A DNA stretch of 62,662 nt, the filler included. It is 10 parts of 10 records of this genome, joined end to end, with 100 filler letters (N's around TTAATTAATTAA, not from the genome) between each part and the next. Parts side by side here need not be neighbours in the genome. Positions count along the whole stretch, not along the records: positions 14,454 to 19,966 come from SRR15195285_5387; 9 more parts are not named here. The stretch is one strand, 5' to 3'. Below, piece after piece: positions 3,531 to 20,066 of this stretch (its first letter is position 1; every line of letters begins with the position of its first letter). The translations under genes were made by a program, and so were the position numbers. Under the pieces are notes generated by a model. It did no database searches and had not been told where the DNA came from. It was given only the letters and a program-made list of their open reading frames with translations.

Positions 3531-3630
3531 NNNNNNNNNNNNNNNNNNNNNNNNNNNNNNNNNNNNNNNNNNNNTTAATTAATTAANNNNNNNNNNNNNN
3601 NNNNNNNNNNNNNNNNNNNNNNNNNNNNNN
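3531..3630. other. Artificial contig spacer
   Basis: N44-TTAATTAATTAA-N44 (stops in all six frames). Confidence 0.99.
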
Positions 3631-10490: not shown

Positions 10491-10590
10491 NNNNNNNNNN
10501 NNNNNNNNNNNNNNNNNNNNNNNNNNNNNNNNNNTTAATTAATTAANNNNNNNNNNNNNNNNNNNNNNNNNNNNNNNNNNNNNNNNNNNN
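10491..10590. other. Artificial contig spacer
   Basis: N44-TTAATTAATTAA-N44. Confidence 0.99.
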
Positions 10591-14353: not shown

Positions 14354-14453
14354 NNNNNNNNNNNNNNNNNNNNNNNNNNNNNNNNNNNNNNNNNNNNTTA
14401 ATTAATTAANNNNNNNNNNNNNNNNNNNNNNNNNNNNNNNNNNNNNNNNNNNN
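14354..14453. other. Artificial contig spacer
   Basis: N44-TTAATTAATTAA-N44. Confidence 0.99.
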
Positions 14454-17400
14454 TGCAAGAGGCGCTGCCAGCATATCTTCTTCTAGAGATCGTCAAGAAT
14501 AACCGGGCGTCGTGGCTGCGCTGGATCAAAAAACACGACCTCGAAAAGACAGGCAAGGACCCAACGCGCCACACTCCAGCGACGCGGCGTAAGTTCTACA
14601 AAGATCCTCATGCTAAGAAGGTTCTCCCTGGTCAGCCTGCAAAACCGGCTACGGTGGCTCCAGCCAAAAAGGAGCCGAAATCTGCGGCGAAGAAGGAGGC
14701 GAATGCTTCGATGAAGAGAACAGCAACCTCAATACCAGTCTCGCCTGCCGGCGCCCCTAGCAAGCGCAACTCGAAGATGTCGGTGATTCTTGCCAGGGCA
14801 CGTGATTACGGAGTCGAGCAAGCTGAACTTGATGCCGCCATGGATGCTGCTGATCCACGCGAAGCAGTGGTGCGTTACAGTTGCGATTGTACTTTTGCCA
14901 CACACAAAGCTATTATGCTAGACCCGATGATGAAATTTTGACAGTTTCGATTTGAATGGAGAATTTAGACACTCTATAATATGTTGCTTCAAAACACCTC
15001 TAAGAAGTTCTGAGGACTAGACAAAAACCGTTTACATACTGGCACGCCTCGCTATCGCGTCCATGAATTGAACCATGTTGTCACTGCGTGACTGTGAGCA
15101 GGTTGGTGTGATGGCACAGTTTTTGACGAAGGCACACAAGGTTTCTGCACTACTCGAGCAGGCCCGTGCGGCGGGACTCCCCCAGACATCGTTGGATGCC
15201 GCCCTGGACGAGGATGACTCCAAGACAGCAGTTGCAGCACTACTTGCCCGTGGCGGCGCCGATATCGCTGCGCCATCGGACCCACCGCCTGCTAAGAAGA
15301 GGAAGACGAGCACAGCCCGCTCAGATGGCAAGGAGGTAGAACGAGCTGAGGCTGAGGATGAAGAAGAACCTCAAGAAGAATGGAAAGTAGATCGCGACGA
15401 CACCGCCGTCTGGAAGTTCGTCAAAGATAATCGGGAAGGATGGGTCGAATGGTTGGTTTCATCTCGGATGGCGAGCATCGGTCGCGACCCTGCACGGCAC
15501 GATGCCGCTACACTTAGGCGGTTCTGGAATAGCGAGCACCCACTGCCACAAAACGCATTTGGTAAAGCAGATGAAAGTTTGTTGCGAGAGATTGTGTCTC
15601 TGGCGGCGATGCGGGATGAGTTTGTTGAATACCTCAAGATCGCACCACTGAAGCTCTCCAAGACTGTCAGGTGCGAGCCTATCAGCTGCAGCCGCTCGCG
15701 CACGCTGGTCACAACGATCAACGAAAGACGAAAACAAATTCATGCTTTTATTTCAGAGTATTCCCTGGTTGACACGAATCGATAGGACTGACATTGAACG
15801 TTGCGAACCCTATTTATACAGCCGCCATCCGAACACAACCATCCGCAATGCTAACCAATACGGCGTTTCTCTTGTGTTCGCAGGAAGCAGTTCGACGCCA
15901 AGCGGCACTCGTGGCGGACACTAGCGGCGTTTATCGCCAGCCTGACATCGGCTTCGCACAGGGAACTGGCATGGGCTTTTTACGACCGGGAACATCCAGC
16001 GCCGAAAGCTGACCCGGACGAGCTTGCAGCTGCGACTGCTGAGAAGCGGAAGTCCTCAGACAGTTCGCGGCGCAATGCTTCATCATCGTCTACAAGGAGG
16101 TCGGGCAAATATCCTCAAGGAGGCATCTGGGATTTGATCCGACGAACTGAGGAGCATCCGGACTACAAGCGGCTGTATGGCCGCTTTCCAAGCAGCGGCG
16201 ACTGGCACAAAACTCCGCGAGAAGTTCCTGCTGCTGCTCGAGTAGCAGGGTGCACGCCACCGGAATTGATGGGAATGGACTGTGAGATGGGTGAGACAGC
16301 TGAAGACGAAAATGCAGTCACTGGACTCGGTGTGGTGGATGACGAAGGCGAGACTGTCTTGGATGAGCTGATTCGCCCGCCGAGTGAACTACTTGACGTT
16401 CGAACTGAGATCACAGGTTTTAAGATCTCCGATTTTGACGGTGCGTCTATTCGACATCCAGATCGTATTGATTAGGCTACGATGATGATCCAATTGTTTT
16501 GTCACTACGTCTGATTTGATTTCCTGAAATACGGCTGATCGTGACGCATAGCATACCACGTTCTGAGTGCTCGCTTCTATGTTACCACCAATCTGTTTGT
16601 GTATCACTATGCTGCTTTTAAACAAGCGTTCAATGTCATTCTGTTGTGCGCGGTAGATGTCAAGGTCACCCTTGCTGACGCACGTCACGTACTCATGGAC
16701 GAGATTGAAGAGCGGAAGAAAGCTGTTGGAGACGAAGGCATGGTTGTCCTTGTAGGTCACGCACTTCATCACGACCTAAAAGCGATGCATATGGACTACT
16801 GGCCTGTCATTGACACCTCCTTCATCTACAGCTACGAAGGTCTACCGCGAGCTACTCCCGCCCTCGCACAACTTGCCACGATGGTGCTCAAGCGTTCGAT
16901 TCGCCAAGAGGTCGATTCGCACCATTCTCAAGTCGAGGACGCACTGGCCTCACTGCAGCTAGCACAGCATCAGCTTGAACACGGAGAGGTTCGAACGCTA
17001 CCTCCTCCCGACACAGTTGTTCCAGCGCCGGCTCGGAAACGGCTGCTTGTCCATAAGCTACCTGCGTCTACGGCGCGTCGGGACGTGGCGAAATTGTTCA
17101 AAGGCTTGGTTCCTGCCGCCGAGGGTGTAGCGGCACACATGTGCAAGGTTGTTGCAGTGATTGACGGCAACAGCATTCCCAAAGACGACAACGATGAAAT
17201 TCCAAAAGAGGCAAAAGCTATGACAGTGAGTCCATTTGCTTAACCCGCACCCTCCCAAGCCAGATCATGGCTTGGGTACTTAGACATACACATTGTACTG
17301 CGAATCAATTGGACGATGAAAATCAATTCATGCTAACCTATACTGAAAGGCCCCACTCTGCAAAGAGAGGGATAGCTGACTGACACGAATCGATAGGACT

Positions 17401-18607
17401 GACGTTGCTTCGCACCTGCATATACTAGTTTTCATAACGTGATGCTCGGCCACATATTCACAACTTTTCATGTGCATTTTGGCAGGCTGCGCTGAAGTCG
17501 AAGTCGGTAACAGTGTGCTTCAAATCAGAGGCTGATTGCAACTGGGCATTCAAACAGCTCACAGGAGACGAGCACGCAGACAACCTTGGCCGGCCAGAGA
17601 AGCGCAACGCAGGTTCACTCGGGGTGACGGTGCGCATGTCTTGTTCGGAAGGAGGGCGGCAGTTTGCCTCGAGCAAGGTCAGTGCCCTGAAGTCTGTAGC
17701 GGCGGCGAAGAAAGACAAGAAACGAGCTGCGAAGTCCTCAGCGAAGGTACAGAAGCCGACGGTGGCGAAGGCCCAAGAATCTGACGATGAGGACGATGAT
17801 GACGATGAAGATGCGGCAACCCTAGTTGCCGCAAACAGCGAGAGTGATGAAGACAACCAAGACGATGAGGAGGACGGTGAAGAGGAGGATGCTGACGACG
17901 ATGGCGACGATGGTGATGATGAGTCGGATGAGGATACCGAGAATGCAGCTGGTGCTGTCAAAATGGCTACTGAGGAAGCGCTCCACGCAGCTTCGGAGGC
18001 AGAAGACGAGGATGATGAAGACTTGTCAGTTGACGAGGATAGCGGCAGCGATAGTGGTAGCGACGATGACGATGACGAAGACAGTATTAGTGACACTGAC
18101 GATGAACTGACTACTCGCACAAGTACGGCATCGAAAAAGAGCACCACTGCAAAACGGAAGGTACCTTCACCGAGCTCTGGTGCCAATGGCGTGGCTGGCC
18201 GTGCCCAGACTAAACTTACCGCTGCGGCGATCGCGAACATGAAAGTTGCGGAGCTGAGGCAGGCTTGTGCAGATCGTAAGCTTAAAAAGACAGGCAACAA
18301 AGAGGAGCTGCGACAGCGCCTCGCAGCGCAGATAATCCTCGAGCTGCGCGAGAGGAAGGCGGCGAAGGAGTCGATGGCTGCAACAGCAGAGGCACTCCCG
18401 AAGAAACGAAAAAGGCAACGAATTTCAGGAGGAACTAGTACGGAGGCGGTGCTAGACACGGAGGAGCTTGTGGCATTCGCGAAACAGCAGCGGCCCGCAT
18501 GGCTTGCCTGGCTGACCAAGCACGCGAAGAAAGGCAAGACAGCCGCAAAGGACCCGGCACGGCATACTGAGGATGATCTCCGGTCATTCTGGCAGTCGCT
18601 GCAGTGA
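14454..18607 (+). CDS. DEDDh 3'-5' RNA exonuclease, SDN (small RNA degrading nuclease)/REXO1-like, with RRM, acidic tract and SAP domain; 5'-partial; snoRNA host gene
   Basis: Introns 14870-15101, 15671-15883, 16441-16656, 17226-17485 all splice in frame. Catalytic motifs 'GMDCEM', 'LVGHALHHDL', 'VIDTS', 'HSQVEDA'. 'LIRRTEEHPDY' precedes the nuclease as in plant SDN1. RRM 'RLLVHKLP...VCFKSEADCNWAF'. SAP 'MKVAELRQACADRKLKKTGNKEELRQRL'. Confidence 0.85.
14918..15020 (+). ncRNA. Intronic box C/D snoRNA (U61/SNORD61-like; 18S rRNA 2'-O-methylation guide)
   Basis: C box ATGATGA 14927-14933, D box CTGA 15010-15013, terminal stem CTAG(a)CC/GG(a)CTAG. The 13-nt guide CCTCTAAGAAGTT is the reverse complement of the conserved eukaryotic SSU sequence AACUUCUUAGAGG. 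Confidence 0.8.
15712..15803 (+). ncRNA. Intronic box C/D-like snoRNA, paralog A (target unresolved)
   Basis: Closing stem CAACG-a-TCAA/TTGA-a-CGTTG, degenerate C box AAGACGA (15725-15731), D box CTGA 15788-15791. Shares AATTCATGCT and a 23-nt identical block with the intron-4 copy. Confidence 0.6.
16476..16571 (+). ncRNA. Intronic box C/D snoRNA with 18S rRNA antisense at D'
   Basis: C box ATGATGA 16482-16488, D' CTGA 16511-16514, D CTGA 16563-16566. TTGTCACTAC upstream of D' is complementary to conserved SSU GUAGUGACAA. Confidence 0.7.
17299..17414 (+). ncRNA. Intronic box C/D snoRNA, paralog B (target unresolved)
   Basis: Closing stem TGCGAA-t-CAAT/GTTG-c-TTCGCA, C box ACGATGA 17313-17319, D' CTGA 17343-17346, internal CTCT-GCAA-AGAG GNRA hairpin, D box CTGA 17399-17402. 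Confidence 0.7.
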
Positions 18608-19362
18608 TGTTGGTCCGAACGATTATGTGCTGCACTGCGTGGATTGGTGGGCTCCAAATTGTTTTCAGGTGCGTACGATGCCCTTTCAGGTGTTTAGAGA
18701 GACAGAGAGAGAGGCAATGTGCACTTTGCAAGTGACGAAAACATCATCAGCTTTGCCGTGAAGCGTTAAGGCAGGGCCACTTGCTGCAGCCACGAGCCGC
18801 TGGCTGGGCTGTGGAGAGGGGTCCGCGCAGTAGATCCCCAGCTTTTGCTCCGGGTTGTGCTCTGTTGGTATCCGACTGGGCATAATCCAGAACACATGAG
18901 GCTGGCGAGAAACTGCACCTTGCGCGAACAAAAACATGACGACCAAGAGTCGCGAGATAGTACTTGATGCAAAACAGCGCGTAGCTGCCGTCTAGTATGG
19001 CGGGGAAGCACACGGACGCTGCCTTGCGTGCCAGTAGAGCTCACTGTGTGTGTTGGTGTGCTGGTGGTGTAGGTGGTGTACTCTAATTTCTCTCAAGTGC
19101 TTGGTTGAGTCCCCATTGAGCAAAGGATAGCTGGGCATCACCCACAGTTACAGCGGCTTCCGGGGTATGCGTAAATGCAATCGGCCGTTCGGATGATCAA
19201 TTCATGCTATATTTATTGACGATTTACTGGGTCGGCACTGCACCGCAGCCGCAGCCACGCCACCAGCACCGACCCTGCCAGCACAGTGCAGACCCCTAAG
19301 TGGTGCCAGCCAGCGCGTGAACAAAAAGCCCATGTGCATACACGCCGCACGCCGAGCTCCAT

Positions 19363-19815
19363 TCAGACCTTCGGAGCCCACGATGGAGCGCGCGTGCCCG
19401 CAGCCGCCTGCTGTATCCGTGCGGCGTCAAGCCGACTAACCTCGCCCTCCTTCTCTGGCATCTTGACCAGAGACTCAGGGTTGCCTAAGCGCTCCTCGAG
19501 CTCCTCGTCGTAGCGGCAGCCCAAGTAAACCATGTTGTACCACATCGCAGACAGCCGGTCGACCTCCTCGGCTTCTTCCTGCGTGTCCGTGCCCAGACCC
19601 TCGTCGCGCATCTTATCCACCCAGCCGCAGCGCGCGACGAACGAAGTGCCCGACTCCCACGGCTTCCGCTCCAGCGTGTACGTGCCTGAGCCGTCGGCGA
19701 ACTCGAGCTTGTACTCCGTTTGCGACACATCCATCCTCCCGCCCGCCCTCTCCGCATCCGCTGTACCACCCGAGGAACCGAGCTGCGCCTCCTCCGCGCT
19801 TCGCTTCTGCGCCAT
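19363..19815 (-). CDS. XRN2-binding domain (XTBD) protein, CDKN2AIPNL/PAXT-1-like
   Basis: 'ERKPWESGTSFVARCGW...RLSAMWYNMVYLGCRYDEELEERL' matches the XTBD pattern R..ES...W..R / LS..w.N...LGC.Y. Single exon. Confidence 0.75.
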   Translation of the reverse strand: MAQKRSAEEAQLGSSGGTADAERAGGRMDVSQTEYKLEFADGSGTYTLERKPWESGTSFVARCGWVDKMRDEGLGTDTQEEAEEVDRLSAMWYNMVYLGCRYDEELEERLGNPESLVKMPEKEGEVSRLDAARIQQAAAGTRAPSWAPKV

Positions 19816-19966: not shown

Positions 19967-20066
19967 NNNNNNNNNNNNNNNNNNNNNNNNNNNNNNNNNN
20001 NNNNNNNNNNTTAATTAATTAANNNNNNNNNNNNNNNNNNNNNNNNNNNNNNNNNNNNNNNNNNNN
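19967..20066. other. Artificial contig spacer
   Basis: N44-TTAATTAATTAA-N44. Confidence 0.99.

Follow-up and report, generated by a model that had tools for sequence, protein, structure and literature searches.

An SDN1-like exonuclease gene as a probable intronic host of box C/D snoRNAs in an uncultured marine eukaryote

Encoding within the introns of a host gene is a well-known arrangement for box C/D guide RNAs, and the locus described here is, in this respect, tidy but ordinary. In Ostreococcus tauri, 72 of 131 snoRNAs are reported to be intronic, and two or three of them may occupy consecutive introns of one host (PMC7671301). The target uridine of U61 is listed as Um1381 in Arabidopsis and as Um1442 in human in a table of PMC3511168. 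Among the DEDDh exonucleases, Rexo5 is described as a known snoRNA 3'-trimming enzyme and as a member of the Rex1/Rexo5/Sdn5 clade (PMC10557570, PMC12129344), whose DEDDh domain is reported to be inserted in a discontinuous alkaline-phosphatase-like domain (PMC12129344).

The window, that is, the whole stretch of DNA that was analysed (62,662 nt), very probably contains a protein-coding snoRNA host gene of an uncultured marine eukaryote. The pre-mRNA of this gene, which encodes an SDN1-like DEDDh exonuclease, would carry, in four successive introns of its coding region, one sense-strand box C/D snoRNA each. A multi-snoRNA host had been proposed at this place by a first-pass annotation, and the candidate box C/D units located in consecutive spliced introns agree with that proposal.

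Structure and product of the host gene

The 5' end of the host gene is truncated by a contig joint at 14454, preceded by the spacer N44-TTAATTAATTAA-N44 at 14354-14453. The visible part of the gene is organised as follows:

14454..14869, + strand: host exon 1, the first visible coding exon; open frame ending in phase 0 at a GTGCGT donor; joint 14869/15102 in RNA contigs
14870..15101, + strand: intron 1, 232 nt; GT..AG joint in RNA runs X14 and X17
15102..15670, + strand: host exon 2; open frame and RNA contigs
15671..15883, + strand: intron 2, 213 nt; joint in RNA runs X14 and X16
15884..16440, + strand: host exon 3; SDN1-like N-terminal region with Exo I motif DCEM; match to 5z9x residues 99-196, E 1.6e-9
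16441..16656, + strand: intron 3, 216 nt; joint in RNA runs X14, X16 and X17
16657..17225, + strand: host exon 4; Exo II GHALHHDL, Exo III HHSQVEDA and SDN1-like C-terminal region; match to 5z9x residues 216-337, E 5.6e-10
17226..17485, + strand: intron 4, 260 nt; joint in RNA runs X14 and X17
17486..18668, + strand: host exon 5; acidic region, SAP domain, stop TGA at 18605-18607, then 61 nt of 3'UTR; frame 17438-18607
18669..19072, + strand: intron 5, in the 3'UTR, 404 nt; joint in RNA runs X14 and X17; without a recognisable snoRNA

Introns 1 to 4 had been placed at these coordinates from the letters of the DNA, and the GT..AG joints confirm them: spliced metatranscriptome contigs skip exactly 232, 213, 216 and 260 nt, in two, two, three and two of the four RNA runs, respectively. 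The RNA evidence consists of contigs assembled from these runs, which neither show nor exclude the accumulation of discrete small RNAs, the form in which box C/D snoRNAs occur in complex with Snu13, Nop56, Nop58 and fibrillarin.

The assignment of the host to the SDN/REXO-type exonucleases is borne out as well. Exons 3 and 4 each match Arabidopsis SDN1 (5z9x), and the host motifs DCEM, GHALHHDL and HHSQVEDA align to its Exo I (D.E), Exo II (D) and Exo III (H....D) motifs, as in a DEDDh exonuclease. The small-RNA substrates of SDN1, a small RNA degrading nuclease by its depositors' name, are miRNAs. The Pfam SAP domain (PF02037) is found in exon 5 with an E of 5e-10. The Pfam RNase_T domain (PF00929), which is split by intron 3, gave no match when the exon translations were searched separately, the sole weak match to them being DEDDh_C (E 0.025); a homologue (P0003, 47% identical) bears PF00929.

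Box C/D units, guides and conservation

The candidate units and their elements are listed below, together with a partial copy located downstream of intron 5:

14916..15023, + strand: snoRNA 1, U61-type box C/D candidate; C box ATGATGA 14927-14933, guide 14997-15009, D box CTGA 15010-15013
14916-14924 and 15014-15023, + strand: stem arms of snoRNA 1; flank duplex of -6.7 kcal/mol
15712..15803, + strand: snoRNA 2, putative paralogue of snoRNA 4 with degenerate boxes; C-like AAGACGA 15725-15731, D box CTGA 15788-15791
15737-15746 (AATTCATGCT), 15771-15792 (22-mer), 15712-15721 and 15794-15803 (stem arms), + strand: elements of snoRNA 2
16469..16568, + strand: snoRNA 3, box C/D candidate; C box ATGATGA 16482-16488, D' box CTGA 16511-16514, D box 16563-16566
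16497-16510 (D' guide) and about 16543-16562 (D guide), + strand: guides of snoRNA 3
17299..17414, + strand: snoRNA 4, box C/D candidate; C box ACGATGA 17313-17319 (one mismatch), D' box CTGA 17343-17346, D box 17399-17402
17299-17309 and 17404-17414 (stem arms), 17325-17334 (AATTCATGCT), about 17351-17371 (internal hairpin), 17382-17403 (22-mer), + strand: elements of snoRNA 4
19189..19220, + strand: partial third copy, 5' half of the snoRNA 2/4 family; CGGATGA and TCAATTCATGCTA ... TTGA, without the 3' half

A box unit was defined as a C box (RUGAUGA) with at most one mismatch, followed by CTGA 50-140 nt downstream. The first-pass annotation had seen a C box...CTGA unit in each of the four introns, and with it a snoRNA candidate in every visible intron. 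This stands for the coding introns 1, 3 and 4 and fails for the C box of intron 2 and for intron 5. Intron 2 lacks a C box at up to one mismatch; at the homologous position stands AAGACGA, which has two mismatches and retains both GA dinucleotides, and a canonical D' box is absent too. A box unit arises by chance with a probability of 0.040-0.052 per random window piece of the same size and of 0.016-0.024 per shuffled intron. Since the per-intron probability is just 0.040-0.052, units in three of the four introns are far above chance.

The C-to-D spans are 87, 67, 85 and 90 nt in introns 1 to 4, all within the 60-130 nt expected of a box C/D snoRNA, and the D boxes end 88, 92, 90 and 83 nt from the 3' splice site, the usual distance of a snoRNA from that site being 70-80 nt. 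Assembly of the C/D snoRNP is position-dependent and coupled to splicing, as reportedly found by Hirose et al. in 2006, and the uniform spacing of 83-92 nt fits such an assembly. Closing stems, also claimed at the outset, are clear in introns 2 (-10.9 kcal/mol, 0.003 of shuffles as good) and 4 (-10.6 kcal/mol, 0.038) and moderate in intron 1 (-6.7 kcal/mol, 0.075). The stem of intron 3 (-3.8 kcal/mol, 0.61) is as weak as had been claimed.

Intron 5 contains neither CTGA nor GATGA, shows no hairpin-H-hairpin-ACA layout in a crude scan and has no Rfam match at E values up to 10. It folds better than its shuffles (z -2.8).

The guides were compared with 5381 nt of foreign rRNA, taken from unrelated eukaryotes (contaminant contigs in prokaryote assemblies) and not from the organism itself, against a background of 575 CTGA-preceding 18-mers. 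The Rfam covariance models, which had been put forward as a check, went against the proposal, since no family reaches its gathering score in the 62,662-nt window. Judged by its sequence, the unit of intron 1 is a U61-type snoRNA, at an Rfam score below gathering: snoU61 (RF01170) matches 14922-15017 with 22.1 bits (gathering score 55; E 0.13), and the 17 nt of guide and D box, CCUCUAAGAAGUUCUGA, equal the RF01170 consensus exactly, in the same register. The guide CCTCTAAGAAGTT, immediately 5' of the D box, pairs with AACTTCTTAGAGG over 13 bp in a single foreign 18S and over 12 bp in most of the remaining ones. The second U of the target lies opposite the fifth position of the guide, and the pairing ranks first among the 575 CTGA sites. 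Complementarity to the 18S around ACUUCUUAGAGG in the family register, as in the D guide of snoU61, was found in several eukaryotes (12-13 bp). Both the pairing with 18S, with the fifth nucleotide on the second U, and the U61-type target region stand, on the foreign rRNA, as first annotated.

The pairing of the intron-3 guide with 18S also held, at 10-12 bp and for the D' guide. TTGTCACTAC forms 10 Watson-Crick bp with GTAGTGACAA (8 of the 575 sites are as good). Against an 18S with GACAAGA, the pairing extends to 12 bp, one of them a G-U (3 of 575). Both values are near the top of the background. The D guide of snoRNA 3 forms 7 bp (384 of 575 as good) and is, on the foreign rRNA, a putative orphan. 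The D' guide of intron 4 forms 7 Watson-Crick bp, as do 384 of the 575 sites; when one G-U is allowed, it reaches 10 bp, as do 45 of them. Altogether, half of the six guide regions gave nothing above background against the foreign rRNA. With an antisense element of at least 10 nt next to D or D' expected of a box C/D snoRNA, the intron-1 D guide and the intron-3 D' guide are long enough, and the D guide common to introns 2 and 4 is marginal at 9 bp.

The units of introns 2 and 4 are, to judge from their shared elements, paralogues. They have in common an exact 22-mer ending in CTGAC, for which no occurrence is expected by chance and of which the window holds two copies at up to three mismatches, as well as AATTCATGCT. 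Their terminal stems differ in sequence and both pair as 5 bp, a mismatch and 4 bp (CAACG-A-UCAA / UUGA-A-CGUUG in intron 2). The partial copy at 19189-19220 has 14 nt in common with snoRNA 4.

Conservation was examined in one related metagenome contig (L051, 93% at the amino acid level), which covers introns 3 and 4. In intron 3, 99 of 100 positions are identical over the unit and 84 of 85 from C to D, against 75% and 66% in the intron flanks. In intron 4, the block 17297-17414 is identical at 115 of 118 positions (89 of 90 from C to D), with flanks at 72% and 58.5%, and it stops exactly at the ends of the 5+4 bp terminal stem. The third positions of the host exons are 74-79% identical. The expected retention of boxes and guides in orthologous introns is thus seen in introns 3 and 4 and, for this one relative, points to purifying selection on these elements relative to the rest of the intron.

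Proposed maturation and alternative readings

In the proposed model, the spliced lariats would be debranched, and exonucleases would then shorten them from either end until they meet the snoRNP formed on the C/D kink-turn and the terminal stem. The predicted mature RNAs are about 90-115 nt long. SnoRNA 1, the putative orthologue of U61/AtU61, would guide 2'-O-methylation at the second U of 18S AACUUCUUAGAGG, and the D' guide of snoRNA 3 would be directed to the A of 18S GGUAGUGACAA. SnoRNAs 2 and 4 would derive from a duplication inside the gene. SnoRNA 4 appears intact and strongly constrained. SnoRNA 2 retains the guide, the D box and the terminal stem but has a weakened C box, so its expression may be poor or it may be in decay.

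Broad expression most likely accounts for the choice of host, with no functional tie to the exonuclease. In comparative work, the location of snoRNAs is reported to drift among broadly expressed genes (PMC3511168), and this instability of position, attributed to how broadly the hosts are expressed, weighs against a functional choice. According to the latter, the exonuclease would trim the snoRNAs of its own introns, or further small stable RNAs, in the coupling of enzyme and substrates that the first-pass annotation had put forward, and the co-encoding and the 3'UTR intron, which could direct the mRNA to nonsense-mediated decay, would form a regulatory loop. The last exon junction follows 61 nt downstream of the stop codon, Rexo5, also a DEDDh exonuclease, is reported as needed for snoRNA 3' end maturation in Drosophila (PMC10557570), and 18% of the O. 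tauri hosts of intronic snoRNAs are given as RNA-processing genes (PMC7671301). However, the best sequence match of the host is SDN1, known by its depositors' name for small-RNA substrates, and not the Rex1/Rexo5/Sdn5 clade with its alkaline-phosphatase-like domain, and a functional choice is decidedly unlikely. It is highly improbable that the units yield no stable RNA and represent fortuitous box-like motifs or the remains of a mobile element bounded by terminal inverted repeats. The near-perfect conservation is limited to the box-bounded cores, the 18S guide matches rank at the upper extreme of the background and the units keep a uniform distance from the 3' splice site, against which stands the lack of an Rfam match at gathering score. 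The repeat in introns 2 and 4, with its inverted-repeat flanks and the partial copy at 19189-19220, would suit a mobile element, but the inverted repeats differ between the copies and yet remain complementary, so they behave as RNA stems, unlike transposon ends.

It is possible, although on balance doubtful, that the elements of introns 2 and 4 are orphan box C/D or C/D-like RNAs, whose invariant elements of 17 nt and 10 nt pair with a target other than rRNA methylation sites (pre-rRNA spacer, snRNA or mRNA). The 17 nt that precede the D box are the same in snoRNAs 2 and 4 despite the divergence elsewhere. As for AATTCATGCT, the second invariant element, its distance of 8-17 nt from the D' box puts the position given by the fifth-nucleotide rule outside it. 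The common D guide, GACACGAATCGATAGGA, forms just 9 bp with the foreign LSU CCUAUCGAU (35 of 575 sites as good), and the conserved LSU consensus beside this site does not lengthen the match. On the other hand, the rRNA compared was foreign and not the organism's own, the flank of the site can vary, as one foreign LSU (L054) reads TATCGATTC there, and guides of nine bp can function given additional pairing. A broader version of the same idea is unlikely: snoRNAs 2 and 4 and the copy at 19189-19220 would form a lineage-specific C/D family, in which GACACGAAUCGAUAGGA and AAUUCAUGCU pair with an RNA outside rRNA methylation (pre-rRNA spacer, snRNA or mRNA) and which is co-regulated with the exonuclease host and its 3'UTR intron.

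Relation to known guides, exonucleases and hosts

Read as a host of intronic box C/D snoRNAs, the gene adds, for an uncultured marine eukaryote, four unannotated candidate snoRNA genes and two predicted 18S methylation sites that can be tested. It presents the layout of one snoRNA per intron, together with duplication within the gene, in a lineage known from metagenomes alone. Such genes are missed by ORF-based annotation and are exposed by islands of conservation within introns. The knowledge of snoRNA biology is unchanged, since intronic multi-snoRNA hosts, RNA-processing genes included, have already been described in animals and Ostreococcus.

SnoRNA 1 shares with U61/AtU61 (RF01170 snoU61 and RF00270 SNORD61, clan CL00067) the canonical C and D boxes, the guide register and the predicted 18S uridine, whereas it has a 17-nt insertion, an unrelated 5' two-thirds and another host gene. 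The host protein shares with Arabidopsis SDN1 the DEDDh motifs and the flanking N- and C-terminal regions (residues 99-196 and 216-337 of 5z9x). It differs from SDN1 in sequence (about 30-40% identity, by eye), in an added long acidic stretch and SAP domain and in a W..W...DP.RH motif that occurs three times. No SDN1-like exonuclease is named as a snoRNA host among the matches listed by a full-text search, taken at the level of titles and abstracts.

Similarly to the intronic hosts of the animal and Ostreococcus type, the gene is a protein-coding gene of RNA metabolism whose consecutive introns each contain one sense-strand C/D unit, set at a constant distance from the 3' splice site. In contrast to the two or three units reported for O. 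tauri hosts (PMC7671301), four are present here. Moreover, two of these four units are putative paralogues, and the host is an SDN1-like exonuclease.

The host gene and its introns

The host gene lies on the + strand of a single 5.5-kb contig (14454-19966), and its 5' end is cut off by the contig joint. The window (62.6 kb) consists of separate contigs chained by N44-TTAATTAATTAA-N44 spacers (3531-3630, 10491-10590, 14354-14453, 19967-20066 and five more), so that genes on either side of a spacer are not linked. The contig DNA is present in marine and seawater metagenomes from 16 studies and also in six metatranscriptome runs. Introns 1-4 follow from the reading frames and the GTGCGT/GTGAGT...AG borders, and they are skipped exactly by assembled metatranscriptome contigs, each in two or three of the four runs compared. 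Intron 5, spliced in the same RNA contigs, begins 61 nt past the stop codon (TGA, 18605-18607) and is therefore a 3'UTR intron.

Introns of the host gene (+ strand), RNA support and box motifs
Intron 1: 14870-15101, 232 nt; RNA joint in 2 of 4 runs; C box ATGATGA at 14927, CTGA at 15010
Intron 2: 15671-15883, 213 nt; RNA joint in 2 of 4 runs; no C box within one mismatch, CTGA at 15788
Intron 3: 16441-16656, 216 nt; RNA joint in 3 of 4 runs; C box ATGATGA at 16482, CTGA at 16511 and 16563
Intron 4: 17226-17485, 260 nt; RNA joint in 2 of 4 runs; C box ACGATGA at 17313, CTGA at 17343 and 17399
Intron 5: 18669-19072, 404 nt; spliced in the same RNA contigs

A stop codon upstream of a spliced 3'UTR intron, a layout that some snoRNA hosts share, can expose the transcript to nonsense-mediated decay. 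Intron 5 folds better than its shuffles (z -2.8). An E-value scan of 18600-19400 gave no Rfam match, and a crude hairpin-ANANNA-hairpin-ACA scan found no H/ACA snoRNA in intron 5, which is weak evidence of absence. The intron interiors are mostly devoid of RNA-contig cover, and the assembled contigs are uninformative on small-RNA accumulation, either way. One RNA contig of metatranscriptome run X15 (record 8; 15220-15792) crosses from exon 2 into intron 2 without splicing, departs from the window exactly past the intron-2 D box (15792) and continues with 68 letters unrelated to it; a strain variant and a chimeric contig are the two candidate explanations.

The encoded protein was described in the first-pass annotation as an SDN/REXO-type exonuclease, and this is right, since exons 3 and 4 match Arabidopsis SDN1 (PDB 5z9x) with the Exo motifs aligned: DCEM of Exo I in exon 3 (E 1.6e-9), GHALHHDL and HHSQVEDA in exon 4 (E 5.6e-10). 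The exon 4 match extends into the C-terminal region of SDN1. The exonuclease domain is interrupted by intron 3; Pfam searches of single-exon translations returned no convincing exonuclease domain, only DEDDh_C (E 0.025), and placed a SAP domain in exon 5 (E 5e-10). Only 8 longer homologues reach E <= 0.001: the top one shares 60% identity, another (47%) carries PF00929, and among the named ones a green-alga protein is closest (41%). In a protein atlas the 60% homologue is nearest to plant exonuclease clusters and also near a mostly Chlorophyta RNase_T + SAP cluster (score 0.87), a clue to affinity that serves as a lead only. The motif W..W(L)....DP.RH.....(R)(K/R)FW occurs three times in the host protein (window 14490-14590, 15420-15540 and 18480-18600) and once, near the N terminus, in the homologues P0002-P0004.

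Box C/D units and their conservation

The first-pass annotation had placed a C-box...CTGA unit in every visible intron. The units are real in introns 1, 3 and 4; the claim stands only in part for intron 2, which has CTGA without a C box at up to one mismatch, and fails for intron 5, which contains neither CTGA nor GATGA. Combinations of a C box (at most one mismatch) with CTGA 50-140 nt downstream number 50 in the window, both strands (0.40 per kb), and random intron-sized pieces of the window contain one with P 0.040-0.052. Their presence in three of the four coding-region introns is well beyond chance. A scanner for C/D-like units with an ungapped stem of at least 4 bp returned 14 in the window; seven inspected outside the host gene resemble GC-rich coding sequence and were not counted as snoRNAs.

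The terminal stem of intron 1 comprises 2+4+2 bp (-6.7 kcal/mol, shuffle fraction 0.075), whereas that of intron 3, already noted as weak, is essentially absent (-3.8 kcal/mol, shuffle fraction 0.61). In mammals the D box lies about 70-80 nt from the 3' splice site. The distance from the D-box end is 88, 92, 90 and 83 nt in introns 1, 2, 3 and 4, a uniform spacing as expected for the splicing-coupled assembly of intronic C/D snoRNPs that Hirose et al. reportedly described in 2006.

Conservation was assessed by one metagenome scan, in which 125 candidate stretches yielded one relative, the contig L051 (1866 nt; 93% amino acid identity over exon 4), which spans introns 3 and 4 and stops short of introns 1 and 2.

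Identity between the host locus and L051
Exon sequence as a whole: 87-91%
Third codon positions of the exons: 74-79%
Core from C box to D box, intron 3: 84/85
Sequence on either side of the intron-3 core: 75% and 66%
Core from C box to D box, intron 4: 89/90
Sequence on either side of the intron-4 core: 72% and 58.5%

The conservation of the boxes, which the first-pass annotation had proposed to check, is thus borne out for introns 3 and 4 in this one relative, with near-identical cores against flanks of 58.5-75%. Conservation in intron 4 extends over 17297-17414 (115/118 identical) and gives out where the terminal stem of 5 bp, a mismatch and 4 bp ends. The two cores are islands constrained more strongly than the neighbouring coding sequence, and the comparison provides the strongest evidence for the snoRNA units.

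Introns 2 and 4 share an exact 22-mer, GACACGAATCGATAGGACTGAC, which has just these two copies in the window even when 3 mismatches are allowed (0 expected), as well as AATTCATGCT after the C box; on these shared segments the two units are paralogues. Their flanking stems differ in sequence and keep the same pairing layout: GCGAA-U-CAAU/GUUG-C-UUCGC in intron 4 (-10.6 kcal/mol, shuffle fraction 0.038) and CAACG-A-UCAA/UUGA-A-CGUUG in intron 2 (-10.9 kcal/mol, fraction 0.003). Stems that have diverged and still pair point to selection on an RNA stem, unlike transposon ends, and the transposon-end reading is very unlikely. Within this paralogous pair, intron 2 has AAGACGA at the C-box position, with both GA pairs retained and the U at position 5 gone, and CAGA at the D' position; its unit is taken to be weakened or in decay. 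The 5' half of the family recurs once more, as a third and partial copy at 19189-19220, in or just past the last exon: CGGATGA is followed by TCAATTCATGCTA and TTGA, and the 3' half has no counterpart. RNA contigs stop right there, at 19186 and 19201.

Guides and rRNA targets

The guides were compared with foreign eukaryotic rDNA that contaminates prokaryote assemblies, used in place of the organism's own: complete 18S and 5.8S (contig L042) plus a complete LSU split between L045 and L052, together 5381 nt. Every CTGA site of the window (575 over both strands) served as background.

Guide pairing with foreign rRNA, and CTGA sites as good
Intron 1, D guide: 12 bp (13 in some 18S); 1/575
Intron 3, D' guide: 10 Watson-Crick bp; 8/575
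Intron 3, D' guide: 12 bp with one G-U; 3/575
Introns 2 and 4, shared D guide: 9 bp to LSU CCUAUCGAU; 35/575
Intron 3, D guide: 7 bp; 384/575
Intron 4, D' guide: 7 Watson-Crick bp; 384/575
Intron 4, D' guide: 10 bp with one G-U; 45/575

Both pairings with 18S that had been proposed earlier, of the intron-1 guide and of an intron-3 guide, were recovered in foreign 18S, the former as the best of the 575 sites. The methyl group directed by the intron-3 D' guide is predicted on the A before the asterisk in GGUA*GUG, which we take to lie four nt 5' of Am438/Am484, as counted on the human sequence. Arabidopsis Am438 and human Am484 are listed as a conserved 18S site (PMC3511168).

No Rfam family reached its gathering score in the whole window, and the covariance-model check suggested for the introns came out negative at that level. 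Reporting by E-value instead brings up snoU61 (RF01170) in intron 1 at 22.1 bits (E 0.13), and the last 17 nt of the match, CCUCUAAGAAGUUCUGA, are identical to the consensus; Dictyostelium DdR1 is matched more weakly through the same guide. AtU61 (RF01170, Arabidopsis 18S Um1381) is tabulated with human U61 (Um1442) (PMC3511168).

The guide shared by introns 2 and 4 (GACACGAAUCGAUAGGA) and the intron-3 D guide are candidate orphan guides with respect to foreign rRNA. The 9-bp LSU site of the former stops at position 2771 of the Rfam model; GAUCCU, the conserved consensus next to it, adds no further pairs, and one foreign LSU has GAUUC at the site. Within the window, matches of at least 13 bp to these guides were only trivial antisense self-matches. 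The 18S stretch TTAGAGTGTTTCAGG, found in three foreign 18S sequences, has 10-bp matches from intron 1 (AGACACTCTA, 14967-14976) and intron 3 (CCTGAAATAC, 16523-16532), to adjoining 18S parts and with one G-U each. As guides these were rejected, having no usable box register and only background length, and the double match is probably chance.

The contaminating rDNA yielded observations of its own. Plain eukaryotic rDNA contigs occur as contamination in many other prokaryote assemblies. The contigs L026, L041 and L046 hold shortened 18S-like stretches (750-1180 nt) that span the whole 1831-position model and are embedded in long contigs (27 and 58 kb) filed as bacterial. Eukaryotic rDNA in viral contigs was rejected: a 15-nt 18S motif gave 18 matches there, each of them by chance, and none came with even one of five further rRNA motifs.

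An exonuclease gene as snoRNA host

The boxes, the conservation in L051 and the guide matches support the reading of the exonuclease gene as a multi-snoRNA host. One intron-encoded snoRNA per intron, with several introns per host gene, is the rule in animals. After splicing of the pre-mRNA, each lariat would be debranched and trimmed, and the snoRNP on the C/D motif would shield the mature RNA. The intron-1 snoRNA and the D' half of the intron-3 snoRNA would then direct 2'-O-methylation of 18S.

The further proposal that the exonuclease is functionally coupled to its own intronic snoRNAs is speculation. Maturation of snoRNA 3' ends in flies depends on Rexo5, a DEDDh enzyme (PMC10557570); however, Rexo5 is a member of the Rex1/Rexo5/Sdn5 clade, whose defining feature is an alkaline-phosphatase-like domain (PMC12129344), whereas the best match of the host is SDN1, outside that clade. 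A full-text literature search, at the level of titles and abstracts, found no case of an exonuclease gene as snoRNA host among the papers listed. The host location of snoRNAs is described as unstable in evolution and as following broad expression (PMC3511168). Ostreococcus tauri, a marine green alga, offers a counterpart to the multi-snoRNA host reading: 72 of its 131 snoRNAs are intronic, 33% of these lying in genes for ribosome biogenesis and 18% in genes for RNA processing, and a single host can carry two or three snoRNAs in successive introns (PMC7671301).
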